NCBI GenBank assembly: GCA_963826115.1
Contig: CAWGVS010000012.1
Coordinates: 576,001-640,000 of the forward strand
Reading direction: 5' to 3'
DNA length: 64,000 nt
Origin: an uncultured Candidatus Rokubacteria bacterium
GTDB lineage: Bacteria > Methylomirabilota > Methylomirabilia > Rokubacteriales > DASRDR01
Below are positions 17,799-49,434 of this stretch, one piece after another; position 1 is the first letter of the stretch, and the number at the start of each line of letters is the position of its first letter. The notes below the pieces were generated by a model, which searched no databases, had not been told where the DNA came from, and saw nothing but the letters and a program-made list of their open reading frames with translations. The translations under genes and the position numbers were made by a program.

Positions 17799-18021
17799 AA
17801 GAACGAATCGGGGGGCGTCGCCGCCCCCGATCGAGGCCCCCGCCGCGAAGTAGTGCGCCGGGAAGGAATCGAACCTTCAACCTACTGATTAAGAGTCCAC
17901 GCTGGAGGCCACGCACCGCACGCCATCGGCAGCTATCTGCACGTCAGATCAAGGAAGCGCCCTGAGACGACCTGTTCCCGCCTCACGGTGCCCTCGCGTG
18001 AGTTGGAACCAGCCTGGAACC
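17799..18021 (-). repeat. att-like site 2: terminator hairpin, 15-bp insert, tRNA-Lys 3' fragment, type-B arm
   Basis: Hairpin 17799-17835; core 17851-17895 (3 mismatches); TGGAACC at 18004 and 18015, 109 bp from core. Confidence 0.92.
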
Positions 18022-18162
18022 AGGACCGCCCCGCGATGGGGGCGCGCGCAGCGGCCACTGCCTGGCGGTGTCCATTGACGGCAGGGAGGGCGGCTGGTGA
18101 TAGTCTCACATGCTCGAAGACCGTGGCGTCACGCCACGAAGTCCCCCCCCAGAGGCCGGTTG

Positions 18163-19716
18163 ATGCTCGACATCGCCGATGCCCGGGCTGGCGCACGCCT
18201 GCTCCGGCGACTCCCCCCGTTTCTGAAGAGGCCCATCACGGCGGAGGAGGCGCGAGCGACGCTGCGCGATCGCCTCGAACACCGTGACGCGGATTTCCTC
18301 ACGCTCGCGCGCCGGTTGATCTTCGGCCACACGGTCAGTCCCTACCGCGCCCTTCTCCGCATGGCCGGCTGCGAGTACGGAGACCTCGAGCGACTCGTCA
18401 AGATCGGCGGTCCGGAAAGCGCGCTCGCCACCCTCGCCGGCCAAGGGGTCTACCTGACCGTGGACGAGTTCAAGGGGCGGCGACCTGTGGTCCGCGGGAG
18501 CACGCACCTCCTTCCCGACCCTCGCGCATTCACGAATCCCCTGTGCGCGCCCGACGTGCCAGGCCGCAGCAGCGGGAGCCGCGGCGCCGCCACACCCGTC
18601 CTCGTCGCGCTCGACTACATTCGCGACTGCGGCGTCGATACCCGTCTCACACTTGATGCCCGCGGTGGCGGAGACTGGCTGAAGGCGTACTGGGGCGTGC
18701 CGGGCGCGTCGGCGACAGTCGTGGTCCTTCGCCTGAGCGCCTTCGGAGCCCCTGTCGTGCGCTGGTTCTCACAGATCGATCCCTGGGCACGCGGGCTCGA
18801 CGCCCGCTACGGATGGAGCGTGACGGGCCTCCGGTGGGGCAGCATCCTCGCCGGCCGTCCTATTGCCGCTCCCGAGTTCGTCAGCGTGGACGACCCGCGC
18901 CCCATCGTCCGATGGATGGCCGACGTACGGAGATCGGGGCGGACTCCATTCCTCCAGACGTTTCCAACCTCGGCGGTGCGACTCTGTCAGGCCGCGCTCG
19001 CCGCCGGCGCCGACATTACGGGCGCGAAGATGATCATGGGGGGGGAGCCGACCACCCGCGCGCGGCTCGCGACCATTCGGCAGGCCGGCGTGGACGCCGT
19101 CCCGCGGTACTCCAGCATCGAGTGCGGGCCGATCGGGCACGGATGCCTCAACCCCGAGGCGCCCGATGACATCCATCTCCTCCATGATCTCCACGCGGTC
19201 GTGCAGCATACCGGCACCGATCTCCTCGTCTCGTCCCTGCGGATGACGGCACCCCTCGTGCTCTTCAACGTCTCCCTCGGCGACCGCGCCACCCTTCGAC
19301 GGCGTGACTGCGACTGTCCGATGGAACGGCTGGGCTGGGACACGCACCTCCAGGGCATCCACAGCGTGGAGAAGCTGACGGCGGCCGGGATGACCTTCCT
19401 GGATTCCGACTTGGTCCGGGTGCTCGAGGAGGTCCTCCCCGCTCGCTTCGGTGGCGGGCCGGCCGACTATCAACTGGTCGAGGGTGAGGACGCCGGCGGC
19501 CGATCGACACTCCGGTTGCTCGTCCATCCACGGCTCGGCGAGGTGCCCAGCGAAGCCGTGGCCGAGGTCTTTCTCTCGGCCGTCGGTCCGGGCGCGGGGG
19601 TCGAGCGCGTGATGGGGCTCGCCTGGCGCCAAGGCCGCATCCTTCGCGTGGAACGGCGCGCACCCCTCGTCTCGACGACCGGCAAGATCCTGCACCTGCG
19701 TGCCGGAGCACAATGA
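18163..19716 (+). CDS. Phenylacetate-CoA ligase/CapK-like adenylate-forming protein
   Basis: RSSGSRG P-loop, MGGEP, RYSSIECGPIG, NVSLGDRA, C-terminal TGKILHL. Confidence 0.8.
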   Translation: MLDIADARAGARLLRRLPPFLKRPITAEEARATLRDRLEHRDADFLTLARRLIFGHTVSPYRALLRMAGCEYGDLERLVKIGGPESALATLAGQGVYLTVDEFKGRRPVVRGSTHLLPDPRAFTNPLCAPDVPGRSSGSRGAATPVLVALDYIRDCGVDTRLTLDARGGGDWLKAYWGVPGASATVVVLRLSAFGAPVVRWFSQIDPWARGLDARYGWSVTGLRWGSILAGRPIAAPEFVSVDDPRPIVRWMADVRRSGRTPFLQTFPTSAVRLCQAALAAGADITGAKMIMGGEPTTRARLATIRQAGVDAVPRYSSIECGPIGHGCLNPEAPDDIHLLHDLHAVVQHTGTDLLVSSLRMTAPLVLFNVSLGDRATLRRRDCDCPMERLGWDTHLQGIHSVEKLTAAGMTFLDSDLVRVLEEVLPARFGGGPADYQLVEGEDAGGRSTLRLLVHPRLGEVPSEAVAEVFLSAVGPGAGVERVMGLAWRQGRILRVERRAPLVSTTGKILHLRAGAQ

Positions 19717-19822
19717 CCCTTCTCCTCGCGCCGCCGTTCCGTCCCCCGCCCCTCGGGAGGGCCGCCGGCACCCCGCCAAGGGCTCGGCCCGCCGTCGAGA
19801 TTGGCGAGCCCCTGTGCGTTGA

Positions 19823-22018: not shown

Positions 22019-22227
22019 AAAAACGAATCGGGGGCGTTGCCGCCCCCCGATCAAGTGGTGAGCCGTGAAGGAATCGAACCTTCAACCTACTGATTAAGAG
22101 TCGGTTCGGGGCCCGAACTCCTACGCACTCAGGAGGAGCTAAGGCCACGACTTTTCTACGCGGCAGCGTGACGGATGTTCGCCTGCGTGGGGCGGAGTTC
22201 GCTTGAGTTTGGCACTGGTATGTCACC
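22019..22227 (-). repeat. att-like site 3: terminator, perfect tRNA-Lys 3' fragment, type-A arm
   Basis: Core 22056-22100 equals consensus; arm ends TGGCAC(22210)-n5-TGTCAC. Confidence 0.95.
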
Positions 22228-22450
22228 GAGATTCGAGAGCTCCCACAGACCGAGCCACGGCCCATCGGGCCGCCTGGGACCTCGCGTCCTCGGACGCCTT
22301 CCCAGCGCCCTCGCGAACCTGCCGTCCTTCACATTCGTCCTGGGCCCATGTGGCGACATCGTCACCTAGCCGTCTGCCCGCCGATTGACGACGCATTTCG
22401 CGTCGAGAACAATGGGGCGGTCGTCCGCCGGCTCGGGTGCGGGGAGGCGC

Positions 22451-23699: not shown

Positions 23700-23870
23700 T
23701 GGTGAGCCGTGAAGGAATCGAACCTTCGACCTACTGATTGAGAGACCGCCGGCGGACGTGAGCCACGCCAGTCCAGACCAACGGAGACCAAGTCTTTCAC
23801 GGGCTTCACCCGCCCTCTTCTGGGTCTGGTTGGGCGGGCACGGCGCAGGTTCTCGGACAATTCTCGGACA
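23700..23870 (-). repeat. att-like site 4: tRNA-Lys 3' fragment, type-D arm
   Basis: Core 23700-23744 (2 mismatches); TTCTCGGACA repeated at 23850 and 23861; no terminator hairpin. Confidence 0.9.
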
Positions 23871-25316: not shown

Positions 25317-25330
25317 GCGCCGCGCCGCGC

Positions 25331-28182: not shown

Positions 28183-31100
28183 TCAGCCGATCCCGTCGAG
28201 GGCAGCCTCCGCCTTCTTCAGCCAGAAGTCCATGCCCATCTCGCGATACATCGCTGTCGCGGTCGTCCGGTGCTTCCGCGCCTTCCCATGGTCTCGGCCG
28301 GCAAGCATCCCGAGTCCGAAGTAACAATGGGCCACGAGCGGGCGCATGCCGAGCTCCTCGGCGAGGGCGAGTGATTCCTGGTAGTGCTTCTCGGCGATCT
28401 CGACCTCAGGGGGATCGCAATGCGCGTGAATGTCGCCGAGGAGCCGGAGCGCCCATGCCTCGTGGCCGCGCTCTTTCCGGTCGCGCGTGAGGGCGAGAGC
28501 CTGCCTGGCGATTGACAGCGCCTCCTCGGGGTGACCGGCGAGCAGGTGTGCCTCGCCGAGAAAGGCGGTGAAGAGCGCGCGATGAACCAAGGGGGCCTTT
28601 GACCCAGGCTCCAGTAGTGGGAGCGCTTCGTCGCCTCGCCCGTCCAGTGCGTACGCGTACCCCAGGGCGGCGAGGAGCGCAGGCAGCTGGGACTCGATCT
28701 GCCACGCCTGGCACGTCGCGACGCCGCGCTCGAGCAGGGGGATGGCCTGCTGAACGTCTCCCCGGCGCACGCGCACATAGCCTGAGCTGAATAGCGAGAT
28801 CGCGACGCTGAATGGATGAGCGGCCAATTCCGCAATCCGGATGCCTTCGTCCCCGACAGCGAGCGCCTCGGTGAACTCACCACGCTCGGTGTGACACCAG
28901 GCTAGCCAGTTGCAGCAGGAGACCGATGGCGAGTACGGCTGACCGAAGCGCTCGGAGAGCCGATCGCCGTGGAGCGCCTGTAAATTGCCTCTGAGCAGGG
29001 CCATGGCTTCGGGATATTGACCCAGAACTCGAAGCGCATGGCCTAGAAAGGCAGTTGTCACGATCTGAAGGCCGAAGTCACTGACTTCGCGGGCGATGGT
29101 CAGGGCCTGTCGACCCGATTCCACGGCACGGTCGGGCTGGCCGTATCGGAGGAAAGAGTTGGTCAGGTGGGCAGAGACCCAGCCCAGCCGCCGCCGGTCG
29201 TCAATAACCCGAGCGAGGGCGTCGGCTTCGCGCAGGATGCCGAAGACCTGCGAGGTCTCGGCCAATGACCAGAGCGCGTTGCGCAGATCGAGCCGCACGT
29301 CGATGGCCTGTTCGATTGTCTTCTGGTTCTCGGGGACATGCGCGAGGGTGCTGCGCGCCTGCTCGAGGCGCCTCACTGCCTCACGATACGCGGAGCGGGC
29401 GAGCGCCTTGGCGCCCGCCTGGTGGAGATAGATGACCGCCTTCTCCCACACCTCTCCGCGAAGGGCGTGGTCGGCGAGGCGCTCGACTTGCTCTGCCAGG
29501 CGTTCTGGATAGAGCCGCTCGATGGCCTCGACGATCCGGGCGTGGAGGCCACGCCGCCGGTCGGAGAGCACGCCATCGTACGCCACGTCGCGCGTGAGGC
29601 TGTGCTTGAAGGTATACTCGACGTCAGGCGTGAGGCGTGTCTCGTAAAGCAGCTCGGCGCCCTGCAGAGCGGCGAGACCGTCACGCAGGGCGTCCTCGGG
29701 GAGCTCGATGAGCGCCTGCAGGAGCGCGAGCGGCGCGTCCTTCCCGATCACCGAGGCTGCCTCGAGCAGGCGTCGTGTCTCCGCGGGTAGTCGGTCGATA
29801 CGCGCGGCCAGGACGGCCTGGACTGTCGCCGGCACCTCGATCGCGTCGATCGGCCGGGCCAACCGATGCGCTCCCCGCTCGCCCACGAGCGCGCCGGTCT
29901 CGGCCAGTGTATGGACCGTCTCCTCCAGGAAGAATGGATTCCCTTCGGTGCGCTCGATCAGGAGTGCCTTGAGTCGCTGCAGCCCGGGATCATGGCCCAG
30001 GAGCGAATCGAGAAGCGCCTGGGCGCTCTCCGGCGGCAGCGAGTCGAGTCGGAGCTGACTGTAGGCCGCCTTGTTGCCCCAGACGTGCTGATACTCGGGA
30101 CGATAGTCGATCAGAAGGCATAACCGCGCGGTCGGAAGGCTCTCGACGAGGCCATCGAGGAGCGCCTGCGTCTCGGAATCCACCCACTGGAGGTCCTCGA
30201 GCACGAGAAGCAGGGGCTGAGCCTGAGCCTCCCGGAACTCGAGCCGCTTGACCGCCTCGAAGGTGCGTTGACGCCGCTGGGAGGGATCGAGGGCTTGCCA
30301 AGGCTTGTCGTCCACGGGCACGTCGAGCAACGCCAGCAGCGCGGATAGGCTGGGGCCGAGGGCCGGGTCGAGCGCGAGGAGCCGTCCGGTCACCTTCTCT
30401 CGAATCGTCGGCGGATCGTCGCGGTCCTCAATGCGGAAGTACGCCTTGAGGAACTCGATCACGGGCAGATATGGAGTCGCCTGGCCGTAGGAGAGTGCGG
30501 TCGCGTGCAGGACCAGCCAGCCCTGACCGCGATGCGCCTGCATGACCTCCCAGACGAGGCGGGACTTGCCGACGCCGGGTTCCCCGATGATGGCCACAAC
30601 CTGGCCGTGACCGGACGCGGCCCGTTCCAGGGCGCGGCGGAGCAGTTCCAGCTCCAGATCCCGACCAACGAGCGGTGTCATGGGACCGCGTGGCGCCAGG
30701 CCGGCGCGCTCGAACCCCTCGAGCCAGTAGCCCTCTGAGTCGCTGGAGTTGAGCGGCACCAGCTCGAACCGTCGCTCGAGCATCCGTGCGGCGGCGGTGC
30801 TCACCGTGATGGCGCCCGGCTCGGCGGCGGCGATCAGCGTCTCGAGCGCTGCGTACGCCTGGGACGTGGCCGCGACGTCGATCAGCATGCCCTCTCCCGT
30901 GTGCCCGACGAGACCCCGCGTCGCGTGAATCGCGATCCGCGTGCCGACATCCTGGGACGTGGCGCGTCGCGCGCGCTCGGCGGCCTTGCGCATCGCGATC
31001 GCGGCATGGGCCGCTCGCCTCGGAGCGTCCTCGACCGACTCGAGCCCGAACGCCGCCACCACGCTCAGCGGCCCCAATCCCTCGACGCGGCCGCCGAAGC

Positions 31101-35597: not shown

Positions 35598-35793
35598 CTT
35601 TCACCCGTCGATCTGGCGTATTGGACCAATAATAGCGCCTTCTAGACATGAATCGTCCATCGCGCATGGCGTAATCTGCCATCGATGAGACGCAGCATAG
35701 ACCGTGACACGCGCGAGGTCCATCCTTCGCCGACAGGCGACGGGGCGGCCGAGCCGACGGTCGGCGAAGCGCCCCGACAACCAGGAGGTCCGG

Positions 35794-36902: not shown

Positions 36903-36925
36903 GGGTGCCGGCCTGAGATGAGGCC

Positions 36926-37131: not shown

Positions 37132-37445
37132 AACAACGGGCGCACGTAGGCGCCCGAACCTACTGATTGGCGATCCGTATCAGGATCATCCTGGCATACA
37201 AGTACGACACCCTCTCTTCAAGGCGGTTCGCGTCTGCATCCGAGCCCAAGGCGCTGCTGGCGATGTCGGATGTCAGCCGGCAGCCGCGCCTCGAGGAGTT
37301 GCCAAGCTACACACGAAAGCGCGCCGCCCGGCGGGATCTCTGGCAATCATGCTCAGCCGCATCCACGCTCGGGCTACAATGCGTTCGCCTGGGGGAGCTT
37401 CATGAGGGCCACTCGCATAGAGGCGGGCACGGCTTGGCCCGTCGA

Positions 37446-39119
37446 ATGATGACGGAGCGCCAGGGCTCCCTGGGCATCGGTTACCCGAGTCAGTCCTCGC
37501 GCCGGGGGTTTCTCCGTCTCTTCGGTTTGGCGGCGGGCGGGGCGGGCCTGGCCGCGTGGCAACCCGAGCCGGCCGCCGCCCAGCAGGGGTCCGCCGGGCC
37601 GCGAGCCGGCGGTGAACTGGTGGTGGCCACTTGGGACGAGCCGATCTCTCTCGACCCGGCCAACACTGCCGCAGCGGGTCTGAACCCGGTCAAACTGATC
37701 TTCGACCCGCTGGTCGTCCAGAGTGGAGACTTCACGCCCTACCCCGGAGTGGCGGAGTCATGGGAGGTGTCCGCGGATGGTAGGGCGTACACCTTCCGGT
37801 TGAAGAGGGACGTCAAGTTCCATGACGGCGCGCCTCTCGACGCCCACGCGGTCAAGTTCAGCCTGGACCGCGCTACCGGTCCCCAGGCAAAGGCGAACTT
37901 CACGATTTCGCTCGCTAGTGTCTACCAGACCACCGAGGTGATCGACGGTCTGACTGCGCGGGTCGTTCTGAAGCAACCGTATGCGGCGTTCTTCCATGCG
38001 CTGGCGGAGGGGTACTACTCGATCGTCTCACCCGATGCGGCGCGGAAGCACGCGATGGAGTTCGATCGTAACCCGGTCGGGAGCGGGCCGTACATCTTTC
38101 AAGAGTGGCTCTCAAAGAGTCATGTCACCCTCAAGAGAAACCCTGACTACGCTTGGGGGTCGATCCTCTTCAAGCACCAGGGGCCGGCGTACCCTGACCG
38201 GCTCACGTTCCGTCTGGTTCCGGAGAGCTCGACCCGTCTGGCCACGATCGAGACCGGCGAGGTCCACGTCGCGCAGGAGATCCCGCCGGAGGAGGTCGAA
38301 CGCCTCAAGAGGCATGCGGGGCTCCAGGTGTTGAGCCGGATCGCTCCCGGCACCTGCGCGCAGCTCATGCTCAACACCACTCAGCCGCCGGTGGACGACA
38401 TCAGGGTCCGCCAGGCCCTGGAGTACGCCGTCGACCAGGACGAGCTGTGCAAGGTGCTCTTCCGGGGTGCCCTCACCCCTGCCCGCACGCCGCTGGCGCC
38501 GGGCACCTTGGGCTACGAGGACAACCTCACCAGGTTCTATCGCACCGACCACGCGAAATCCCGTGCCCTGCTGGAAGCGGCCGGCTGGCGGCTCGGTAAC
38601 GACGGCATCCGCACCAGGCAGGGCCACCGCCTCGAGTTGTCGATCAACATCGTCAGCGCCAGCATCCAGACGCTTCCGATCAAGGTGGCCGAGGTGGTGC
38701 AAGCTCAGCTTCGCGAGGTGGGTATCTTCCTGGTCATCAAGCAGACCGACACCGCCGCCTTGTTCGCGATCCTGAGGGCGGGGAGCCAGCAGATGGTGCT
38801 CGGCTGGCGCGCCGGCTCGGACCCGGACGTCCTGCGCCCGCTCTTTCACTCCAGCTTCTTCGGAAAGTCTCCGGTCGCGCGGATCCGCTTCAAACACGAG
38901 CGGCTCGATCGGTTGCTGGAGCAAGGCACGCTCGAGCTCGACCGCACCAGGCGCCAGGCGATCTACAAAGAGGTTCAGGAGATCGCCCTCCAGAACGCCC
39001 TGGTCGTGCCGCTCTGGAACCGCCACGCCTTCGTAGCGGCGCGATCCGAGGTCCGAGATCTCGGCCTCGACCCGCGGGGAGACGTCAGCCTGTACGACGC
39101 CTGGCTCCCGAGGGGGTGA
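37446..39119 (+). CDS. ABC peptide/nickel transporter substrate-binding protein (family 5), Tat-exported
   Basis: SRRGFLRL, GGELVV, AESWEVSADGRAYTFRLKRDVKFHDG, PVGSGPY; start approximate. Confidence 0.92.
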   Translation: MMTERQGSLGIGYPSQSSRRGFLRLFGLAAGGAGLAAWQPEPAAAQQGSAGPRAGGELVVATWDEPISLDPANTAAAGLNPVKLIFDPLVVQSGDFTPYPGVAESWEVSADGRAYTFRLKRDVKFHDGAPLDAHAVKFSLDRATGPQAKANFTISLASVYQTTEVIDGLTARVVLKQPYAAFFHALAEGYYSIVSPDAARKHAMEFDRNPVGSGPYIFQEWLSKSHVTLKRNPDYAWGSILFKHQGPAYPDRLTFRLVPESSTRLATIETGEVHVAQEIPPEEVERLKRHAGLQVLSRIAPGTCAQLMLNTTQPPVDDIRVRQALEYAVDQDELCKVLFRGALTPARTPLAPGTLGYEDNLTRFYRTDHAKSRALLEAAGWRLGNDGIRTRQGHRLELSINIVSASIQTLPIKVAEVVQAQLREVGIFLVIKQTDTAALFAILRAGSQQMVLGWRAGSDPDVLRPLFHSSFFGKSPVARIRFKHERLDRLLEQGTLELDRTRRQAIYKEVQEIALQNALVVPLWNRHAFVAARSEVRDLGLDPRGDVSLYDAWLPRG

Positions 39120-39270
39120 GCGTCCGCGAGGTTCTAGCGTCGAGTCGAGCGCCTCGTGGAGACACACGGCGAGCATCACGAGGCTGCCAGTCGACGAGAT
39201 TCCAACCGACACGAGCCGATGTGGCCCCCTTGGCGCTCTCCAACGACCGGCGATCGCGTCCGCTCGCGCC

Positions 39271-39597
39271 TTACGCAAGTGTCGCGAAGGCGCAGAGTCG
39301 CGCCTCCGTGACCGCGAGCATCCAGCCTTGCAGACTGACGGTGCGACCTTCTTCAAAATCGTCCCGCGTCCGAAGTCGCACGAATTCGCGGAGCTGTATC
39401 CGGCCCAGAGCCCGCAACCTTGCCGTGTCCTCACGCGAGCAGATCAGATCCAGGAGGACCCTCTCGTCTACCTCCTCGGGAACGCTCCGCAGGGACTCGG
39501 CGCCAACAACCCCGGCGCTCTCCCTTTCCTCGAGGAGGCTCAGGAATCTCGCCGCGAGACTTCTGCGGCTCTGCCCTTCAACCCATTCTGCCCACAC
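39271..39597 (-). CDS. Small hypothetical partner of the GMC oxidoreductase, N-terminus possibly frameshifted
   Basis: DDFEEGRTVSLQGWMLAVTEARLCA; an RRRF Tat-like start appears upstream in another frame near 39677. Confidence 0.55.
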   Translation of the reverse strand: MWAEWVEGQSRRSLAARFLSLLEERESAGVVGAESLRSVPEEVDERVLLDLICSREDTARLRALGRIQLREFVRLRTRDDFEEGRTVSLQGWMLAVTEARLCAFATLA

Positions 39598-39673
39598 GGG
39601 CCACGTCAGTTCCGGCAGTCCGCAGCTCAGGGTCGTCTCGGGAATCGGCGGCGCTGGTCGCGGATCTGCGTCC

Positions 39674-41266
39674 TCACTTCATAAGACCTGTTATGCGGTC
39701 GGCCAGCCGCAGTGCAAGGGCAACGATCGTGAGTGTCGGAGTCCCCGAGCCACTCGTCGGGAAAACGGAGCTTCCGGCGACGAAGAGATTCCGCATCCCG
39801 TGGACTCGGCAATGTCGGTCCACGACGCCTTGCTCGGGGTCGTCGTGCATGCGCGTAGTTCCCATGTGATGCCAAGATCCGAGCGTCTCGGCGGGCCACG
39901 TGGCCTCGTTGTCGTCCAACAATACTTCCACCCGGCCGAGTCCGGCACGGCCGAGTTCCCTCCCGATAACTTCCAGGGCTTGCCTTGCGCTCAGCTTGTC
40001 GATCGCGCTCAGCCGCCAGTGCACCGCAACCCGCCGCTGCCCTAGCCGGTCACGCTCCATGCCTAGCGTCACCCGGCTCTCGGGATTTGGGGCCGGATCG
40101 ATCCTCGTGATCAGGTTGATGCGGTCGACGGGCGCCGCCTGCCGACCGCGCGCCCACCAGTAGGCCGCCACCGTCACGTCGTCGAGGTCGCGGATGACGT
40201 TCCCGACGTGCTTCCCGAAGCTGTCCGGCACTTCCCCTTGGCGAAGCTTTCCCAAGAGGTACTTGATGGACGCGACCCCCCTGGAGCTCGACGCCCTGAC
40301 GTATGATTCATCGTATCCCGGGTCGAGTCTCACCTGCACATCGACGACTCTCAAGCGACGCTGGGCGGGCGGCGACAGGGCTAGAGATCCCCTGATGCTC
40401 GTGTTGGCCACGACATGAAATCGGTAGAACTGCGGCATCAAAGAGTCAGCCGGGCGAAAGAGGCCACCGACGAAGGTGGGGTGATCAGCGAAAAACCTCC
40501 CGACGAGATCGTTGCCGTTGCCGAGACCGGTCGGTTGGATCCGATTCGACAGGAGGAGCAGACGGGCGTTCTCGATGCCACCGGCCGCCAGCACGAACAC
40601 CTTCGCCGCCACCAAGAAGCTGGTGCCCGTGAGACAGGCCACGCGGAGATGGGTGACGGTCCTCGCGGTCTCTTCGGTTTCGATTTCGGTCACGTTGGCA
40701 TTGAGGTACGTCGTGACGTTCTCCGCTCGGACAACCTCGTCCCGGTAGGTCTCGCCGAATCTCTTGAGCGGGTCGGGCGCTTCCTGCGTGACCGCCGTGA
40801 TCACGGCGTCTGCGTTCACTGACAGCGGTGCGTATCGATCGAGCGTCTGCCAATAGCTCGCCTCCCAGTGGGAGGAGCTGAGCTGACAGATGGATCGGGC
40901 GCGCTCGTAGAAGGGTTCCAGCTCGGCCTTGCGGAACGGCCACCCACTGTGGGGAATCCAGTCGCGGGCCTCGAAGTCGAGATCAGTAAGCGGTCGGCAT
41001 GCGCCATACCAGTGGTTCGTCGTCCCCCCGAAACAACGCAAGCGCGCCGTCCGGAGGGGGAGGGACGGAAGTCCGGTACTCTTGCCATCGGCGAGCGACT
41101 GGGTGTCTTCGTCGGGTCTGAATCCGCCGCTCTCCAGAAGACACACGCGAAACGGCCGACCGGCGAACTCGCGGGTCAGCGTAATCCCAGCCGCGCCGGC
41201 GCCGATGACGCAGACGTCCGTCTGAACGGTGGACCTGTCCGGTACGGAGCGGGCGTCAACGACCAC
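39674..41266 (-). CDS. GMC family FAD oxidoreductase
   Basis: DVCVIGAGAAG, GGTTNHW, LAAGGIENARLLL, HHMGTTRM, SSVFPTSG..PTLTIVALA. Confidence 0.95.
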   Translation of the reverse strand: MVVDARSVPDRSTVQTDVCVIGAGAAGITLTREFAGRPFRVCLLESGGFRPDEDTQSLADGKSTGLPSLPLRTARLRCFGGTTNHWYGACRPLTDLDFEARDWIPHSGWPFRKAELEPFYERARSICQLSSSHWEASYWQTLDRYAPLSVNADAVITAVTQEAPDPLKRFGETYRDEVVRAENVTTYLNANVTEIETEETARTVTHLRVACLTGTSFLVAAKVFVLAAGGIENARLLLLSNRIQPTGLGNGNDLVGRFFADHPTFVGGLFRPADSLMPQFYRFHVVANTSIRGSLALSPPAQRRLRVVDVQVRLDPGYDESYVRASSSRGVASIKYLLGKLRQGEVPDSFGKHVGNVIRDLDDVTVAAYWWARGRQAAPVDRINLITRIDPAPNPESRVTLGMERDRLGQRRVAVHWRLSAIDKLSARQALEVIGRELGRAGLGRVEVLLDDNEATWPAETLGSWHHMGTTRMHDDPEQGVVDRHCRVHGMRNLFVAGSSVFPTSGSGTPTLTIVALALRLADRITGLMK

Positions 41267-41285
41267 TGGGCCGTCGCTCCGTCAC

Positions 41286-42212
41286 TCAGCGAGGCTCTAG
41301 CGTCGGGTCGAGCGCCTCGCGAAGGCCGTCTCCCAGGGCGTTGATCGAGAGCACCGTCAGCAGGATCATCACTCCGGGAAACGTCGAGACCCACCAGCCG
41401 CTGCGCAGGTACTCCCGGCCGCTGCTCACCATGGCACCCCACTCCGGCGTGGGCGGCTGAACGCCCAAACCGAGGAACGAGAGGCCCGCGGCGACCAGGA
41501 TCGCCGCCGCGACACCGAGCGTCGCGATCGCGATCACCGGAGTCAACGCGTTCGGAAGCACGTGGACCAACATCACTCGCGCATCGCGCCCGCCGGTTGC
41601 GCGGGCCGCTTCCACGTGGAGGCTGCTCTTGGCAGAGAGCACGCTCGCCCGTACAACCCGCGTGTAGTGCGGAACGTACGAGATGCCCACGGCAACCATC
41701 ACGCTTGTCAGACCAGGCCCGAGTATGGCGATCACGGCCAACGCGAGGAGAATGCCGGGAAAGGCGAGCAGCACGTCCATCACACGCATGATGAGCATGT
41801 CACGCCATCCGCCGTGGAACCCGGCCAGCACCCCGAGGACGAGCCCACATGTCAACGAGATCCCGACTGACATGAGCCCGATCCGGAGGGAGAGTCGGGC
41901 GCCGTAGAGTACACGACTGAAGACATCACGGCCGAGGTGGTCACTGCCGAAGATCTGCTGCGCGCTCGGTGGTTCCAGGACCCTCGCCGAGTCGATCTTG
42001 ATGGGATCGCGGGGCGCGACCAGCGGCGCCAGAGTCGCCAAGACCGCGACAAGGCTCAGGACCGCGCCACTCGCGAGCGCGACCCGGTCCCGTCGGAGGC
42101 GCCGAAGAGCCTCCAGCCAGGGGCCCCGGGGCGCCCGCGGCGCTCGGCAACAGAGGGCCGCCGCGGCCGGGCCTGCGGGCGCAGGCCATCCGGCACGACC
42201 TCGCTCACTCAT
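41286..42212 (-). CDS. ABC peptide transporter permease (DppC-like)
   Basis: FGSDHLGRDVFSRVLYGARLSL, EAARATG, LSFLGLGVQPPTPEWG, GDGLREALDP. Confidence 0.93.
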   Translation of the reverse strand: MSERGRAGWPAPAGPAAAALCCRAPRAPRGPWLEALRRLRRDRVALASGAVLSLVAVLATLAPLVAPRDPIKIDSARVLEPPSAQQIFGSDHLGRDVFSRVLYGARLSLRIGLMSVGISLTCGLVLGVLAGFHGGWRDMLIMRVMDVLLAFPGILLALAVIAILGPGLTSVMVAVGISYVPHYTRVVRASVLSAKSSLHVEAARATGGRDARVMLVHVLPNALTPVIAIATLGVAAAILVAAGLSFLGLGVQPPTPEWGAMVSSGREYLRSGWWVSTFPGVMILLTVLSINALGDGLREALDPTLEPR

Positions 42213-43128
42213 GTCGCATCCGCGGATCCAGCGCAGCGCAGAGGACGTCGACGGCGAGGTTGACCAGGACGTACGTCGCACCCGAAATGAGAACGAAGCC
42301 CTGCACGACGGGGACGTCTCGATTCAGGATCGCCTCCACGGCGAGCCGGCCCAAGCCCTGTCGGGCGAACACGTTCTCGACGATGACGCTGCCGCCGAGC
42401 AGCGCGCCAAACTGCAGTCCGACGATCGTGACGACCGGGATCAGCGCGTTCCTCAGGGCGTGCCGTACCAAGAGGACCCGATCCGACAGGCCCTTGGCGC
42501 GGGCCGTCGTGATGTACGGCTGGGCGAGCGCCTCGCGGGTCTTGGCCCGCGTCACCAGACTGATGACCGCCATCGCCTGGATGCCCAACGTGAAGGCAGG
42601 GAGGATCAGACGCTCCGGGCCACCCTGACCCGTGGCTGGAAGCCAGCCCAGCCACAACGAGAACACGAAGATCAGAAGCAACCCCAGCCAGAAGGACGGC
42701 ATCGAAACACCGACGAGCGAGAACGCAAGACTCGCTCGGTCGAGCCAGGTGCCGCGATGGTTGGCGGTCAGCATCCCGAGCGACAGCCCGAGCACGATCG
42801 CCAGACCAAGGCCCGTGATGGTGAGCTGAATCGTGCTCGGGGCCTGTTGAAGGAGTTCGTCGAAGACGGGACGGTTCGAGCGTACCGACCGGCCGAGGTC
42901 CCCGCGGATCAGGTTGCCCAGGAAGCGCACGTACTGAACGACGATGGGGTCATCCAGACCAAGCCGGGCGCGCAGCTCGGCGATGCGCTCGGGACGGTCC
43001 CCGGAGTCCCCGAGCATGACCAGAACCGGATCGCCGGGCAGCAGATGCAGCACGGCGAACGTGAGGATCGATACACCCAACACGACGGGAATCGCGGCGA
43101 GCAAACGGTGCCCCACATACCGCAGCAC
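42205..43128 (-). CDS. ABC peptide transporter permease (DppB-like)
   Basis: LLPGDP, LGLDDP, RGDLGRS, SMPSFWLG, TARAKGL, RHALRNALIP. Confidence 0.93.
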   Translation of the reverse strand: MLRYVGHRLLAAIPVVLGVSILTFAVLHLLPGDPVLVMLGDSGDRPERIAELRARLGLDDPIVVQYVRFLGNLIRGDLGRSVRSNRPVFDELLQQAPSTIQLTITGLGLAIVLGLSLGMLTANHRGTWLDRASLAFSLVGVSMPSFWLGLLLIFVFSLWLGWLPATGQGGPERLILPAFTLGIQAMAVISLVTRAKTREALAQPYITTARAKGLSDRVLLVRHALRNALIPVVTIVGLQFGALLGGSVIVENVFARQGLGRLAVEAILNRDVPVVQGFVLISGATYVLVNLAVDVLCAALDPRMRHE

Positions 43129-43461
43129 GGGGCTACAGTAGCCCACCGGGGCGGGCGCGGCAAAGCCACAGCTCTCACTGGTCCCACTGGGCGGCGCGAC
43201 GACGTCCCCCCCAAGGCGTGGTCACGCTTCAGAAGGCCCTGAGCACTCACGCTGCGGCGGGCGGGCGCTGGCCGTTGCGGGCGTGACCTAGCCGTTACGG
43301 TGTAGACCCGTCCTCGCCGCCGCCCACCCGGATCGCTGCTCCCGCGGCTCTGACCGAACCCATCGCGCCGGCACCCATACCTGGTTGACCTGGAGGCGAC
43401 GTGTGTCGCACGATGCGCGCGTTGGGCGACCCCGGCCGAACACGCGGGCGACGGAGATCCC

Positions 43462-45168
43462 ATGGCGACGAACCCCTGGAGCTACACGAGTGGCACGAGC
43501 GACGTCCCCCTGCTCGGCCTCACCATCGGCGACATGTTCGACGAGACGGTGGCCCGGTACCCGGACAACGAGGCGCTCGTCTCCTGCCACCAGGAACTCC
43601 GATATACGTATCGCCAGCTCCAGGCCGAGGTCGACCGCTGCGCCCGCGCGCTCATCGCCCTCGGAGTGGACAAGGGCCAGCGGGTAGGAATCTGGGCGCC
43701 CAACTGCGCCGAGTGGGCCATCACCCAGTTCGCGACGTCGAAGCTCGGCGCCATCCTCGTGAACATCAATCCGAGCTACCGGCTCAACGAAGTCCAGTAC
43801 GCGCTGAAGCAATCCGGCTGCGCCTGGCTCGTCACCGCGCCGCACTTCAAGGCCTCGGACTACACGGCGATGCTCCACGAGCTCGCGCCGGAGCTGGCAA
43901 GCAGCCAGCCCGGCTCTCTCGAGGCGGCTCGCTTCCCACACTTGCGCGGCGTGGTGCGGCTCGGCGCCGAGCCGGCGCCGGGGATGCTGGGCTGGAGCTC
44001 GCTGCTGGCGATGGCCGAGCGGGTCGGCGCCGACGAGCTGGCCCGCCGTCAGCGCCAGCAGGAGTTCGACGACCCCATCAACATCCAGTTCACGAGCGGA
44101 ACCACCGGCTATCCCAAGGGCGCCACGCTGAGCCACCACAACATCCTCAACAACGGCTTCTTCACCACCGAGCTGCTCCGCTTCACCGACCGCGACCGGC
44201 TCCTGATTCCCGTACCGCTCTACCACTGCTTCGGCATGGTCATGGGCAACCTGGGCTGCATGTCCCACGGCGCGACCATGATCTATCCAAACGACGGCTT
44301 CGACCCGCTGGCCGTCCTAGAGGCCGCCCAGGCCGAGCGCGCCAGCGCGCTCTACGGCGTGCCGACCATGTTCATCGCCGAGCTGAACCATCCCGACTTC
44401 GCGAAATACGACCTCTCCTCGCTGCGCACTGGCATCATGGCCGGCTCCCCCTGTCCGGTGGAAGTCATGAAGCAAGTGCAGGCGCGGATGCACATGCGCG
44501 ACGTGGCCTGCGCCTACGGCATGACGGAGACCAGCCCGGTGAGCACGCAGACGCGCATCGGGGCGCCGCTGGCCAAGCAGGTCGGCACGGTCGGCCAAGT
44601 GCACCCCCACGTGCAGATCAAGATCGTGGACCCGCAGACCGGCCAGGTGGTGCGGGTCGGCGAGCGCGGCGAGCTGTGCACGCGCGGCTACAGCGTGATG
44701 CTGGGCTACTGGGACAACGACGAGGCCACCCGGGCCGCGGTCGACGGCGCCCGCTGGATGCACACCGGCGACCTGGCCACGATGGACGAAGAGGGCTACC
44801 TCAACATCGTGGGACGGATCAAGGACATGATCATCCGCGGCGGCGAGAACGTGTACCCGCGCGAGATCGAGGAGTTCCTCTATGGCCACCCCAAGGTCCA
44901 GGACGTCCAGGTCATCGGCGTGCCCGACGAGAAGTACGGCGAGGAGATCATGGCCTGGGTGAAACTGCGCGAGGACCAGACCGCCACCGTCGAGGAGATC
45001 CGCGACTACTGCCGCGGCAAGATCGCCCACTACAAGGTCCCGCGCTACGTCCGCTTCGTGGACGCCTTTCCCATGACGGTCACCGGCAAGATCCAGAAGT
45101 TCGTGATGCGCGAGGAGAGCGTGACGCTGCTGGGTCTGGAGAAGGCCGCCGCCATCAGGATGGCCTAG
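43462..45168 (+). CDS. AMP-dependent fatty-acyl-CoA synthetase
   Basis: [59 protein letters not shown]. Confidence 0.95.
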
Positions 45169-45274
45169 AGGTTTCTCCCTCCCACCGCCCGAGCGTGCGC
45201 ATCAGCGCCACCGCGTTCGAGGTGCGCCCCCGCTGACGCGTAGGTGGCAAGACGCATCGCTTCCGGCCGCTCTT

Positions 45275-45484
45275 CTATCGTGGGGGGGACGGCCGGGCTA
45301 TCTCGTCGATGGCGCCGGCGTCCCGGTGACGTGCCTCGGGCAAGTGGATGTCCCAGCAGCGCACGCTGCAGAACCTGAGTTTCAGCCGTCCGGAGTTACA
45401 GGTCGACACTGAGCATCGATAGAACTTCGTCCCCATCAGGATCGGCGTCTTGCACACGGAGCACACTCCGAACTGTGTCGGCAT
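45275..45484 (-). CDS. Small Cys/His-rich zinc-finger protein (69 aa)
   Basis: GGAGG-rich RBS; CSVC...YRCSVSTCN...FCSVRCWDIH...RHRD. Confidence 0.75.
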   Translation of the reverse strand: MPTQFGVCSVCKTPILMGTKFYRCSVSTCNSGRLKLRFCSVRCWDIHLPEARHRDAGAIDEIARPSPPR

Positions 45485-45551
45485 CCTCGCCCCTCCCTCT
45501 CACTTGAGGAGCATCTCACGATTCCGCTTCGCCGGGTCCCCGAGGCCCAAG

Positions 45552-45756
45552 AAGACGAATCGGGGGGCGGCGCCGCCCCCGTCGAGTGGTGAGCCGTGAA
45601 GGAATCGAACCTTCAACCTGCTGATTGAGAGCTGGTTGCGGGCCCGAACTCCTCCGCACACAGGAGAGCCAAGACCACGAATCTTCTGCGCGGCCGCGTG
45701 ATGGATGTTCGCCCGGGTGCGGTGGAGTTCGGTGGAGTTTGGCACTGGCATGTCAC
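45552..45756 (-). repeat. att-like site 7: terminator, tRNA-Lys 3' fragment, type-A arm
   Basis: Core 45587-45631 (2 mismatches); TGGCAC at 45740, 109 bp from core. Confidence 0.95.
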
Positions 45757-46133
45757 GGCGATTCTGCTGCCACGCACCGAGCCCCAGCGCCCACGTGCCC
45801 GCCTGACCTGACCCCAAGTTCGGCGCCCAGTTGAGAGCTCGATCAGGCCAACGCGCCGATTCGGGGCGAGTCATCATGGGGCGCCAGCTTCGCCGCCACC
45901 TTGTCGCCGTCGTATTGCGAATGACATGACGCTCCGGCCGCGGCCAGCTCCTCCAGGACCTCATGCCGGCGGCGGCCGGTTCGGATCCGCGTCGCGGTCA
46001 CTTCACGGCGACGGCCAGAAGCGGTCGAGGCTGCATCCGCTCCGGCCAAGCGCGGAGGTGGTCGCTGGGCCCGGTGGAAGCGCACGCAGACGCAGAGCGC
46101 GGCGAGGGCAGCCGATCAGCCGCGCGTGACGGA

Positions 46134-47594
46134 CTAGCGTCGGAAGACAAGGATCCCGTCTTGCTCGCTGAGGAGGGTGTAGCCCTTGTCGGGGAGGCGG
46201 GCGATCTCGTCCTCGAAGGAAGGCCCGGCCGGCCAGCGGTCGAGCCTGCGGTCGAGGATCACGTACTCCGCCCGGATCATCGGACCGGGCCCGAGGTCCG
46301 GGAAGAGATAGATGAACTCGCGATGCGTGAGATGAGGCAGGATGACGTGTTGCGTGGCGACCGCCGCCTCGCGTGGAAGGGCCTCGACGGTGGCGGCAAG
46401 CCTGCCGAGGTGAGGGGTCATCCGGTACTGGCGGAGGTGCCACGACTCGGGCTTCGCATGGAAGAAGAGCGACGCCGCCAGCAGCACGGCCGCCAGCCCA
46501 CGGTGTCCGGCGAAGCGATCACGGGCCACGCTGGACGGCGCGACCAAACGAGCCGCTCCTCCCAGGGCCGCATAGAAGACGACCGGCACCAGCTCCAGCA
46601 CGTAGTGGGACCCGATGGAGCTCTGCTGGGGCGTCGTCGACAGGAGGTTCTGGGCCAGGAAAGGGAGCGCCAGGAGCAAGCGCGCGGGCGCCAGGATCGG
46701 CAGGAAGGCGACAGGCCCGAAGAGGTGCACGAGGTAGACCAGCTTCCTGGCGACTAGCCACGATCCGCTGCCCAGCTGGTACCGGTCGTAGTACATGTAG
46801 CCCTGGGTGTTGAAGGCCGGGATTACCCAGAGGAAGCCCGCCGCCAGCCACACGGCGAAGCCCGCGCTCAGCGCGATACCGAGGGACCGCTGCCGGCCGG
46901 TCACGACGAGGTAGAGCCCCACGGCGATCCCTGCGGCCGGCATGTTCTCCTTGCAGAGCCCGGCCAGCACGAGGAAGGTCACCATCGGTCCCCATCGTCT
47001 GCGCTCCATGAAATGGAAGGCGAGCAGCAGGAGCACCGGCACGAACGCCGTGGGGTGGTAGTCGGTCCGGTTCGCGTTGCGAAGCGGCCGATAGAGTAGG
47101 TACAGGAGCGGGAAGAGGGGACCCAACACACTGCCGGGAAAGCTCGCGCGTGCCAGCCAGTAGAGCGGTACGGCGCCGAGCGCCAGGACGAGCCCCTGGG
47201 CCACCAGCGGGATCAGCGGCGAGGGAACGACCTGATAGAAGGGAACAAGGACGAGCTGGAGCGGGTCGAAGTGGTCGCCAAGGAGAATGGTATCGCCCTT
47301 GAGCGACGAGAAGAGCAGGCGCCCGTGGGTGGTGTTCCAGAGGGCCTGGTCGAAGATGCCGAGATCGAAGCCCGTCTGAAAGGTCCGGTGGCGGCGGACG
47401 GCGACGGTGATCAGCACGCTCGCCGCCAGCGCGATCAGCCCGTAGAGGGCGACGGGCGTGACCGCCAGCCAGTCGCCGAGAGTCCCGAGGAGTCGCGTGC
47501 CGGCGAGCGGGCCGGGATTCCGGTCACGCGCGAGCCGACGCCTCAGCCCGAGAAGGCAAAGGAAGCCCGTGACCCACCCGCCCAGGGTCGCCAC
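46134..47594 (-). CDS. DUF2079 membrane protein (GT-C-like); N-terminus may be frameshifted upstream
   Basis: FDLGIFDQALWN, LGDHFDP, LALGAVPLY, LCKE, HYVLELVP. Confidence 0.85.
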   Translation of the reverse strand: MATLGGWVTGFLCLLGLRRRLARDRNPGPLAGTRLLGTLGDWLAVTPVALYGLIALAASVLITVAVRRHRTFQTGFDLGIFDQALWNTTHGRLLFSSLKGDTILLGDHFDPLQLVLVPFYQVVPSPLIPLVAQGLVLALGAVPLYWLARASFPGSVLGPLFPLLYLLYRPLRNANRTDYHPTAFVPVLLLLAFHFMERRRWGPMVTFLVLAGLCKENMPAAGIAVGLYLVVTGRQRSLGIALSAGFAVWLAAGFLWVIPAFNTQGYMYYDRYQLGSGSWLVARKLVYLVHLFGPVAFLPILAPARLLLALPFLAQNLLSTTPQQSSIGSHYVLELVPVVFYAALGGAARLVAPSSVARDRFAGHRGLAAVLLAASLFFHAKPESWHLRQYRMTPHLGRLAATVEALPREAAVATQHVILPHLTHREFIYLFPDLGPGPMIRAEYVILDRRLDRWPAGPSFEDEIARLPDKGYTLLSEQDGILVFRR

Positions 47595-47947
47595 GTCGAC
47601 CGTGATGCGCGGGCCCCGGTAGACGAAGCCGCCGCTCAGGAAGAGGAGCGCCAGGCCAGCGAGGTACCCGTTCAGGAGCCAGTCGAAGGTGCGAGAAGCG
47701 AGCGTGCGCGCAGGGAGCGGCGCCTCACGACGCGTAGGCAGTCGCCTCCTTCAGAGGATCCTCGGTGGCTTGCCTGGGCCCATCTCCGGCTTCCCGAGGA
47801 CGCCACCCGATGATGCGCCCCAATCGGGCGAGCGTCCCACGGGAATCCTCGGGGTCGGGGTGCCCCCTGTCAAGTTACTCGCCCTCCCGCCAGGCTGGAA
47901 CCGCGGACCCGCCGCACCGGACGATTGGGCCGCAACTGCTCGCCCGG

Positions 47948-48156
47948 AAAAACGAATCGGGGGGCGTCGCCGCCCCCCGATCGAGTGGTGAGCCGTGAAG
48001 AAATCGAACCTTCAACCTACTGATTAAGAGTCCCAGCCGGCCGCGACGCACCACACGCGATCCACAGCCATCAGCACGTCGGATCAGGAAAGGATCATGA
48101 GGTGACCTGCTCATACCCCGCTATGTCTCGCGGTGAGTTGGAACCGCTCTGGAACC
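47948..48156 (-). repeat. att-like site 8: terminator, tRNA-Lys 3' fragment, type-B arm
   Basis: Core 47986-48030 (1 mismatch); TGGAACC at 48139 and 48150; arm related to that at 17896-18021. Confidence 0.95.
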
Positions 48157-48362
48157 ATGCCCGCCTGTTCCTGGACGAGCGGCGTCGACCACCGGGACCG
48201 CAGGGATCTAGTTCGGTGGGGCGGGACGGACATCAGGGCGAAGGGGGGCTCGACCCGTCGTAGCCGCTCATCGTCCGGCCGAATGGCGACGGGACGAGTC
48301 CCTCCGATGAAGAGCTGTTGTGAGACATTAGCCTCACGTCTGCTGGGCTATGGTGATGCGAT

Positions 48363-49145
48363 GTGAGGAATAGCGACCGTGAACGAGACATAGCACGGCT
48401 TCGTGAGGCGATTGAGCGCCTGCATTCGCCACGGCTGCAGATGGCGCTGATCGTGGCACTGGCAGGAGCGGCCGGCTTCTTCGCCTCGTTTGCGTTGCTC
48501 CATCTCGGGGTCAAGTTCCTGTGGCTCCGATATCCGCTTGCCGTCGCAACCGCATACCTGACGTTCCTGCTGCTCCTCTGGTGCTGGCTGCGCCTGAAGA
48601 GGGACGATCTGCTCGAGAGTCTCGACGTTCCCGGCTCTGGCCCGGGCTCACACTTTCCGGGCGGAGACGCCACCCCAGAGAATGTCTGGCGGGCTGGAGG
48701 TGGTCGTTCGGGAGGCGGCGGGGCATCTGCCTCGTTTGGCGAGGGTCTGGGAACGGTGGACTCTTCCCCAGGCGCGAGTTCGCCACTGTCTGGAGAGAGT
48801 TCCACCACCCCGGAGGGTCCCGACTTGCCCGATGCCGAGAATCTGGCCGGGATCGCGGCTCTCGTGGCGTTGGCGGCGGCTGCGTGGGTTGCTGTCTGGA
48901 TGACGCTGGCCGCGCCGGCGTTTCTCGCGGAGCTCTTGCTGGATACAGCGCTCGCCGCCGGCTTGTATCGCCGGCTCCGTGCTGTCGAGGAAGGTCGCTG
49001 GCTTCGAACAGCCATGCGCCAGACCGTGTGGCCGTTCGTCTGTGTGGCGTTGGCATTCGCACTCGCTGGAGCCCTGATGCAAACCTACATGCCGAGCGCC
49101 CACTCGATCGGTGAGGTCATCCGCCGCGTCATCGAGAACCGGTAA
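48363..49145 (+). CDS. Hypothetical membrane protein, the only gene in a 1.28-kb module
   Basis: TM segments, GGGRSGGGGASASF linker, APAFLAELLLD. Confidence 0.75.
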   Translation: MRNSDRERDIARLREAIERLHSPRLQMALIVALAGAAGFFASFALLHLGVKFLWLRYPLAVATAYLTFLLLLWCWLRLKRDDLLESLDVPGSGPGSHFPGGDATPENVWRAGGGRSGGGGASASFGEGLGTVDSSPGASSPLSGESSTTPEGPDLPDAENLAGIAALVALAAAAWVAVWMTLAAPAFLAELLLDTALAAGLYRRLRAVEEGRWLRTAMRQTVWPFVCVALAFALAGALMQTYMPSAHSIGEVIRRVIENR

Positions 49146-49225
49146 GGGGACGCCACCACGCCGGATACTTGCGGCCGAGCTCGGCCAGTACTGGCAAGCG
49201 CTGGGATGGGTGGCAAGGATCTCGG

Positions 49226-49434
49226 AAAAACGAATCGGGGGGCGTTGCCGCCCCCCGGTCGAGTGGTGAGCCGTGAAGGAATCGAACCTTCAACCTACTG
49301 ATTAAGAGGTGGTCGCGGACCCGAACTCCTCCGCACTCAGACGATCTAAGCGTACGTATTTCCTGCGAAGCCGCCTAACCGATGTTCGCCTGCGTGTGCT
49401 GGAGTTCGGTGGAGTTTGGCACTGGCATGTCACC
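49226..49434 (-). repeat. att-like site 9: terminator, perfect tRNA-Lys 3' fragment, type-A arm
   Basis: Core 49264-49308; TGGCAC at 49417, 109 bp from core. Confidence 0.95.

Follow-up and report, generated by a model that had tools for sequence, protein, structure and literature searches.

Half-tRNA junctions with terminator-like hairpins form a probable accretion array behind tRNA-Lys(CTT) in a Candidatus Rokubacteria genome

Integrons build their arrays with a resident integrase, and their cassettes are mostly promoterless, hold a single gene each, lie in one orientation and share a common promoter; their attC sites work as folded single strands. Among streptococcal integrative and conjugative elements (ICEs) and integrative and mobilizable elements (IMEs), cis-mobilizable elements (CIMEs) are flanked by attachment (att) sites, are devoid of integration and transfer genes and stand in tandem at the 3′ end of the target; their mobilisation by a functional neighbour was proposed, as far as the sections of that account dealing with CIMEs go (PMC5704250). 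In Dehalococcoides, islands lie in tandem within 100 kb downstream of ssrA and are bounded by a 20-bp direct repeat of that gene. An integration module is present in 16 of 31 of them, and the authors suggest that the others are cis-mobilizable; the integrase, a serine recombinase, has a gene whose 3′ end overlaps the att site, and the description of the islands mentions no terminator carried along (PMC3146451). For Islander, an island is marked by an intact tDNA and displaced 3′ fragments oriented like it, with crossover at the anticodon loop or T-loop of the tRNA, and every island of a tandem must hold an integrase; by the counts in its description, 3919 islands include 125 tandems of at least 2 and 4 of at least 3, and the same source notes that the integrase genes of Mx8 and SSV extend across the phage-side attachment site, attP (PMC4383910). 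Here we analyse a 64,000-nt stretch of an uncultured Candidatus Rokubacteria bacterium (positions 576,001 to 640,000 of contig CAWGVS010000012.1, hereafter C12, of assembly GCA_963826115.1, hereafter G000; the whole stretch is called the window), in which copies of the 3′ half of tRNA-Lys(CTT) recur in series, many of them beside one hairpin, H1. A first-pass annotation, made from the letters, had proposed that H1 is the terminator of the host tRNA and that single-arm sites carrying it permit repeated insertion, as in attC x attI recombination.

The array and its commonest hairpin

Coordinates are window positions, and "window-equivalent" positions continue the same numbering past the window ends. 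The assembly (6.24 Mb in 12 contigs, about 70% GC) has a sole tRNA-Lys(CTT) gene, on the minus strand of C12 (c647501-647576, window-equivalent 71501-71576), 7.5 kb past the window end, and ARAGORN found no intact tRNA-Lys in the window itself. A 30-nt pattern of the tRNA core matched the window 10 times with at most 3 mismatches, always on the plus strand (17866, 22071, 23715, 34290, 36976, 45602, 48001, 49279, 53706 and 58375), where shuffled sequences give an expectation of 0. Read on the minus strand, each match is tRNA-Lys(CTT) from the anticodon loop to CCA. Two further fragments (64792 and 65795) lie between the window and the intact gene, and a weak one is found at 5402. On C12 this makes 14 cores, in the same orientation throughout and with the intact tRNA at one end, the arrangement of tDNA and displaced fragments by which Islander recognises islands. 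The array extends over 66-88 kb, mostly covered by the window, with 13 core-to-core intervals of 1.0-12.5 kb. At every site the anticodon loop marks the exact start of the identity block, which ends at the T-run of the hairpin. In structure, this is an accretion behind tRNA-Lys(CTT).

The first-pass annotation had placed the same hairpin beside the CCA end at seven sites (17799, 22019, 34238, 36926, 45552, 47948 and 49226). Searched without gaps and with at most 3 mismatches, the 38-nt string that it quoted was recovered at only two of the seven (47948, exact, and 49226, 2 mismatches). Indels of 1 nt in the G and C runs set the remaining five apart, and alignment and BLAST identify them as the same element. 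A profile of hairpin plus core gave 14 hits in the whole genome (E from 8.5e-10 to 2e-30; the next-best match had E = 0.076), and as all of them fall within the array, H1 is not a dispersed repeat. The hairpin was thus found at every site named. On the tRNA strand the order is also as first described, with CCA, 3-5 nt, a stem of about 12 bp closed by a GCGA or GCAA loop (-19 to -28 kcal/mol) and a U-rich tail. Behind the intact tRNA this tail reads U6; it is U5 at 47948, 49226 and 22019 and eroded at 34238, 36926 and 45552. A GC-rich stem-loop followed by a run of U is the signature of intrinsic (rho-independent) terminators, and H1 is a predicted one. Site 17799 is atypical, with about 15 extra bases between the hairpin and a variant acceptor end.

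How common such hairpins are was assessed on 62 half-tRNA sites (at most 9 mismatches to the 45-nt core) from 13 contig stretches of six genomes. At 70% GC the folding energy of the whole 55 nt was a poor discriminator (32 of 62 sites under the 5th percentile of controls), and a hairpin criterion was used instead: a stem of at least 8 bp beginning at most 10 nt from CCA was present at 50 of the 62 sites, against 414 of 3000 random 55-mers from the same contigs. The sites fall into families H1 (31), H2 (10), H3 (10) and H4 (2), with 9 left unclustered. H1 is the commonest of at least five hairpin families.

Conservation from CCA outward at H1 sites stops in two narrow classes, at 35-45 nt (hairpin and T-run; most sites) and at 60-73 nt. 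The long class, about a third of H1 sites, extends 20-35 nt past the T-run; 34238, 47948 and 49226 share this extension with sites of other genomes. Neither direct repeats nor integrase codons were found on the H1 side. The extension had the look of a diverged integrase 3′ end, an idea dropped after tblastn: the integrase C-terminus gave no significant match in the 400-nt left flanks of 11 H1 sites, while five of five H2 sites scored between 1e-4 and 3e-51. The claim that the hairpin side carries no arm repeat therefore stands for repeats and integrase codons, and is weakened by the shared 20-35 nt, which faintly suggest a second conserved arm at about a third of H1 sites, the sign by which the first-pass annotation would have known decayed two-armed islands.

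Arms, cassettes and integrase remnants

To the right of the cores lie the P arms. Arm A is 133 bp long with a sharp end, and contains two direct GGTGGAGTT repeats and one inverted copy; it follows the cores at 22071, 34290, 45602, 49279, 53706, 58375 and 65795, and was found only within arrays, in 4 of 21 genomes searched. Arm B follows those at 17866, 48001 and 64792. All junctions of the window read on the minus strand. H1 is joined to a tRNA 3′ half and arm A at 22019-22235 (half at 22056-22100), 34238-34455 (half at 34275-34319, arm at 34320-34455), 45552-45764 (half at 45587-45631) and 49226-49442 (half at 49264-49308), and to a half with arm B at 47948-48165 (half at 47986-48030; here H1 is the exact quoted string, and the flank is of the long class, conserved from about 47926). 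At 17799-17895, H1 (17799-17835) and the extra nucleotides precede the variant half (17851-17895), arm B following to about 18030, and 36926-37005 comprises H1 and a half (36961-37005). The half at 23700-23744 has 2 mismatches, an unrelated left flank and a P arm of its own, of family P3, and the weak half at 5387-5431 has 5 mismatches and no H1. Past the window, H1 copies start at window-equivalent 64743, 65745 and 71463, the last behind the intact tRNA.

Hairpin type and P-arm type combine freely at the junctions, as is expected of junctions at which the end of one cassette meets the beginning of its neighbour. Inside cassettes, H1 pairs with three arm families (P1 in 12 cases, P2 in 7, P3 in 4) and H2 with P1 and P5 only. 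The unit is an integrase-less cassette of 1-10 kb made of a P arm of 130-180 bp (A, B or other), unremarkable metabolic or regulatory cargo, a predicted intrinsic-terminator hairpin and a copy of the tRNA from anticodon loop to CCA. With this layout every junction is a hybrid, in which the hairpin and tRNA half come from one cassette and the P arm from the next. Some junctions have been lost, as shown by orphan fragments of arm A (13920-13974, no adjoining core, meaning fused cassettes) and of arm B (58626-58706), neither assigned to a strand, and by an orphan hairpin with ACTCGGACA direct repeats and no adjoining tRNA core (window-equivalent 68932-69006; L001 4932-5006). The arm type of this hairpin is that found behind the intact tRNA in G002 and G014, and a 97-aa HerA_C fragment adjoins it.

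Two junctions had been singled out as different by the first-pass annotation, and they are. At 53625-53870 (tRNA half at 53691-53735) and 58293-58531 (tRNA half at 58360-58404), both with arm A, the hairpin is the longer H2 and is preceded by GGTAGCA direct repeats lying within the last integrase codons; at the second site the repeats are degenerate (GGTAGC) and accompany 26 C-terminal codons. Overall, H2 junctions keep 19-107 integrase codons. The longest remnant of the window is an open frame on the plus strand (53152-53703) that holds the C-terminal part of a tyrosine integrase (PF00589 at 53404-53568), of which 107 aa, at 53413-53733, align to a full-length relative. The frame has no stop before the attachment site and continues across the GGTAGCA repeats and hairpin to enter the tRNA core.

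This was the only integrase hit among the 50 open reading frames scanned, and the only one of 10 PF00589 matches in a six-frame search of the genome to fall in the array. None of the 13 intervals has the full integrase that Islander requires of each island. As for a resident integrase of the integron kind, no PF00589 match was found between the array and the next 40 kb, the nearest being at C12:690923. The five full-length tyrosine recombinases of G000, considered as helpers, were rejected as Xer-like or unrelated to the array fragment, and the only serine recombinase of the genome is on another contig. Across the 62 sites no full integrase was found, the tRNA-proximal cassettes of G000 and G003 included. 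PF00589 likewise detected no complete integrase in the G003 array, in G008 contigs C3, C4 and C30 or in G014 contigs C7, C2 and C20. A full-length frame of 431 aa exists in G021, of the same order and another family (L042 1411-2706), where it converges on an intact tRNA-Lys(CTT); its 3′ end has the same repeats, then a hairpin of other sequence, then the tRNA, and, lacking a stop before the att site, it too reads through repeats and hairpin into the tRNA. From such frames, the C-terminal tail of the integrase would be predicted to differ between the integrated and excised forms, as is reported of the Mx8 and SSV integrases. Searched by tblastn against 589,638 bases of array contigs, the G021 integrase matched fragments only (that of G000, a 212-aa piece in G008_C69 and short tails). 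In public records the same tail with GCTACCA repeats occurs in assemblies labelled Rokubacteria/Methylomirabilota, Nitrospirota, Acidobacteriota and others; 27 of 46 loci have a convergent tRNA at most 400 nt away. C12 has more integrase fragments of related families, at 690755-691156 and at 792242-792760, the latter with an in-frame TAG and an end resembling a translated tRNA fragment; they suggest other decayed tRNA islands.

Cassettes shared between species and the origin of H1

Comparisons with relatives used assemblies G000 to G021, and none rests on G038. A 141-nt query of flank, hairpin and tRNA had matches in 36 of 41 related genomes (19 copies in G003, 21 in G008, 18 in G014), and similar arrays occur in five other genomes of the genus, of which the array is a trait. 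The backbone of G003 is syntenic with that of G000 up to window-equivalent -16267 and again from 75096, and the two flanks enclose 117 kb in G003 and about 88 kb in G000, mostly different DNA. With the backbone ending at -16267, the variable region extends well to the left of the first recognisable half-site; a tRNA-Ser(CGA) gene (475-567) lies inside the stretch non-syntenic with G003.

Cassettes are held in common between species at 93-97% identity, for a backbone at 85-88.5%, with breakpoints 0-14 nt from the cores. Window 34275-36965 (AraC, SnoaL and SDR genes) is found in G001_C22 (96.1%) and in G003 (95.2%). Its left end is the core of the junction at 34238 and its right end the junction at 36926; in all three genomes it begins exactly at the core and ends in H1, the right hairpin being cut and its core gone in G003. 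The left neighbour of this cassette ends in H1 in the window, in H4 in G001_C22 and in H2 in G003. Likewise, G003 523799-525394 matches G014_C7 from core to core (96.1%), window 5386-9578, starting at the weak half, matches G008_C30 (95.9%), and G008_C3 38727-44032 matches G014_C7 (94.0%). Cassettes with the same boundaries in different species, all integrase-less, must have been exchanged after, or without, loss of the integrase. Window 43338-45227 is an entire cassette of G008_C30, and the 8.6-kb interval 36976-45602 that contains it is therefore a fusion.

The sequence downstream of the intact tRNA-Lys(CTT) of this genome was read, as the first-pass annotation had advised, and the same hairpin is there. 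Among congeners, the hairpin behind the intact tRNA is H1 in G000, G005 and G011; G003 has H2 with repeats there, G002 and G014 have a third type accompanied by GTCCGAGTT repeats, and that of G007 is H3-like. This variation implies that the terminator is brought by whatever adjoins the tRNA. Since, moreover, the shared cassette ends in H1 in three species behind three different left neighbours, H1 is cassette-borne: it travels with the cassette and is not simply a fixed host flank. A native origin nevertheless has something in its favour. In G014, the backbone gene orthologous to C12:560313-561239 (its protein is 86-91% identical across congeners) has, at a distance of 72 nt, the array-distal half-site with an H1-like hairpin, and in G012 the same spacer with a decayed H1-like hairpin precedes the ortholog. 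Other hairpins occupy the orthologous position in G004 and G013, and no recognisable far-end site was found beside this gene or its ortholog in G000, G002, G005, G008, G010 and G011. Because an H1-like hairpin adjoins the backbone gene in G014 and G012, H1 may copy the native tRNA-Lys terminator of the genus, a matter that we judge to be about evenly balanced. The identification of H1 with the host terminator thus keeps the backbone spacers of G014 and G012 on its side, and loses ground to cassette-borne H1, to the variety behind congeneric tRNAs and to the hairpins of G004 and G013. The half-site of G014 (G014_C20 63853-63897) reaches past the anticodon loop by a few bases of the 5′ strand of the stem (GAGTCAGTT); instead of a displaced 3′ half, it may be what is left of an old, once complete tRNA-Lys copy.

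The intervals carry genes for asparagine synthase, ABC substrate-binding proteins, a peptide ABC system, a glycosyltransferase, an amidohydrolase, a CoA-transferase, AraC and ArsR regulators, an SDR, GMC and BBE oxidases, an acyl-CoA synthetase, DUF2079, an APH-type kinase, an aminotransferase, DinB and two large STAND-type regulators. Gene orientation is mixed, and genes for AraC, ArsR and a sigma-54 activator lie inside cassettes. The two STAND-type regulators are in separate cassettes (28183-32280 and 54712-58227); one is a sigma-54 activator with AAA_16 and TPR, the other combines a zinc ribbon, an adenylate cyclase domain, AAA_16 and TPR. A stretch of 1.1 kb is common to both at 71% DNA identity (29537-30607 versus 56099-57169), and more paralogs exist elsewhere in the genome. 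At 60458-62280, NMT1-like substrate-binding genes are duplicated in tandem (60908-61289 versus 61900-62280, 73%) and followed by a SCO1/SenC gene. Two very small cassettes, both with arm B, have no clear gene (48031-49225 and window-equivalent 64822-65744; 1.28 and 1.0 kb), one being without a Pfam match and the other having a weak DUF4410 match just under the cut-off.

How the array may have grown, and its place among known systems

The explanation that we favour, with a confidence only a little above even, is that of an accretion array formed by serial insertion, at tRNA-Lys(CTT), of integrase-less cassettes carrying a terminator, with an integrase transiently supplied. A tyrosine integrase of the family of the 53413-53733 fragment would exchange strands in the anticodon loop. 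The tRNA half and terminator of the incoming cassette would become the working 3′ half and terminator of the gene, and the earlier copy would be shifted downstream; the regenerated gene would be open to a new insertion, and the array would grow from its tRNA end. The terminator so restored would, for H1, possibly be a copy of that native to the genus. The integrase being gone from the arrays today, a transient element that bore one would have mobilised the cassettes, in trans or in cis, on the lines of the CIME model, with homologous recombination at the conserved junctions perhaps contributing to the shuffling. A bolder form, which we hold only tentatively, is a tRNA-anchored, integron-like gene-capture platform of an uncultivated high-GC soil lineage. 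Its cassettes would need in cis just a P arm and the 3′ side of the target (tRNA half and native terminator); an integrase acting in trans would add them in succession, the whole target being remade each time, and the cassettes would circulate freely between species. The array and the shared cassettes do fit the repeated insertion proposed at first pass, each event restoring tRNA and terminator, and H1 joins three P-arm families. That early model is partly supported, right in outline, its mechanism and its integron analogy being unproven.

Several findings weigh against insertion of integrase-less cassettes. This genome yielded no integrase that could carry out the reaction, and in the 21 genomes searched every P arm A found lies in an array, none of them next to a full integrase. 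Fusion with loss of a core has affected at least two intervals, H2-type junctions are demonstrably decayed autonomous elements, so that part of the array is ordinary decay, and homologous recombination between junction repeats would give the same breakpoints. Marker-gene contamination of the assembly is 5.3%. Neither circular forms nor empty sites nor excision joints were observed, and public runs yielded nothing but short DNA contigs: 20 of 22 runs hold part of the stretch (best, 0.40 of its words), and the contigs of four runs on 44001-64000 are 150-730 nt long and bridge no junction, which is no evidence either way on excision. One loose contig end, at 48032, continues into the 5′ half of the tRNA; it could be the intact locus, 93% alike there.

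In a strict one-armed model, H1 would be the host terminator (B′), and a P arm, core and B′ would suffice for recombination with the tRNA, like attC x attI. The same hairpin behind the intact tRNA agrees with it, as do the H1-like hairpin in the backbone spacer of G014 and G012, the occurrence of H1 with P1, P2 and P3 cassettes, integrase codons kept beside H2 with none beside H1, and conservation ending at 35-45 nt at most H1 sites. We nevertheless find this model doubtful, as other hairpins stand at the orthologous place in G004 and G013, the hairpin behind the intact tRNA of congeners varies (H2 in G003, the GTCCGAGTT-repeat type in G002 and G014), the long class shares its 20-35 nt more, the integrase is neither beside the tRNA nor in the arrays, and gene orientation is mixed in cassettes that have regulators of their own, unlike those of integrons. 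Ordinary autonomous islands, each arriving with an integrase by its hairpin and losing it independently by deletion, would require nothing to have moved without its own integrase. Decay, perhaps from an ICE or IME, is legible at H2 junctions, which retain integrase codons and arm repeats; orphan arms and truncated hairpins speak of ongoing deletion, and tandem elements decay in the published model as well, in its part on such arrays (PMC5704250). Independent deletions should scatter, yet the 11 H1 sites tested keep no integrase codon, and conservation at the H1 sites, half of the 62, stops at sharp common boundaries in two narrow classes. The absence of a full integrase at all 62 sites, down to the tRNA-proximal cassettes, and the recurrence of integrase-less cassettes with identical boundaries in two or three species also make independent decay unlikely.

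The first repeats could also be the work of an old site-specific insertion, the present spread and shuffling of cassettes being due to homologous recombination between junctions of 85-260 bp after DNA uptake, without integrase. Junction repeats are 84-97% identical across species, the breakpoints fall within identical cores, where site-specific and homologous exchange look alike, and no integrase was found. Against this, the cores measure only 45 bp, insertion rather than replacement requires a circular intermediate, and the return from H2 to H1 along the array, together with the free combination of hairpins and arms, fits unit-wise insertion; we consider such an origin rather improbable. A long target-site duplication of the CRISPR or casposon kind, by fill-in of tRNA half and terminator, was considered for the sharp boundaries and rejected on two grounds: in the three genomes the tRNA-proximal hairpin of the shared cassette is always H1 and the distal one H1, H2 or another, and along the array two H2 sites are followed by H1 again. 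Finally, mis-joined repeats or collapsed strains might be suspected in a metagenome-derived assembly of 12 contigs with this contamination, whose junction repeats are of a size that confuses short-read assemblers; comparable arrays, whose shared cassettes differ in order, are present in five more assemblies of the genus and the backbone is syntenic on both sides of the array, which makes an artefact very improbable.

If it is true that cassettes move without their own integrase, there would be a second route, besides integrons, for stacking gene packets at a self-renewing site, here with a tRNA gene as its basis and a phage- or island-type tyrosine integrase. An element could then carry the terminator of its target along with the tRNA half, restoring tRNA expression and the insulation of inserted genes at each step. 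Half-tRNA and hairpin junctions offer a simple finder for integrase-less cassettes, which are discarded by island finders requiring an integrase per island. Should decay and homologous shuffling be the whole explanation, the array would still be an unusually long and clean record of serial insertions. At the level of literature listings, no paper was found on such arrays in this lineage or on a terminator carried in attP, which is not proof of absence.

With integrons, the array shares small integrase-less units inserted serially at one regenerated site, with hybrid junctions. The attC x attI likeness drawn at first pass fails on defining points: no resident integrase was found by the site, and the cassettes are multi-gene, in both orientations and with regulators of their own. 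The junctions are attP-like and double-stranded, 220-260 bp long and set on a tRNA half, and H1, in comparison with attC, is a plain perfect stem beside that half. As in Mx8 and SSV, in the account of their integrases cited above, the G021 integrase frame and the window fragment extend over the att site, reading through repeats and hairpin into the tRNA. From islands as Islander is described to define them, the array takes its displaced 3′ fragments in the orientation of the intact tDNA and a gene that the island would restore, and the start of its identity block would place the site, as theirs, at the anticodon; no interval would pass the integrase filter. Among published arrays the nearest is that at Dehalococcoides ssrA, as described, with its tandem units by one small-RNA gene bounded by a repeat of it. 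There about half of the units keep an integrase; here the family is that of tyrosine recombinases, the repeat is a 45-nt tRNA half with a terminator of about 40 nt, and no full integrase is left. The closest known kind of structure is a CIME-like accretion at a tRNA gene. Like CIMEs in the published description, the units are att-flanked, lack integration and transfer genes, and stand in tandem at the 3′ end of a gene restored by each insertion. For mobilisation with or by a functional element, the cassettes shared from core to core between species are indirect evidence. The units differ from CIMEs in number (one genome has 13 intervals and six together have 62 sites, none retaining a functional element), in size (just 1-10 kb, half of them without trace of a past integrase) and in that every unit has a predicted terminator directly behind CCA.

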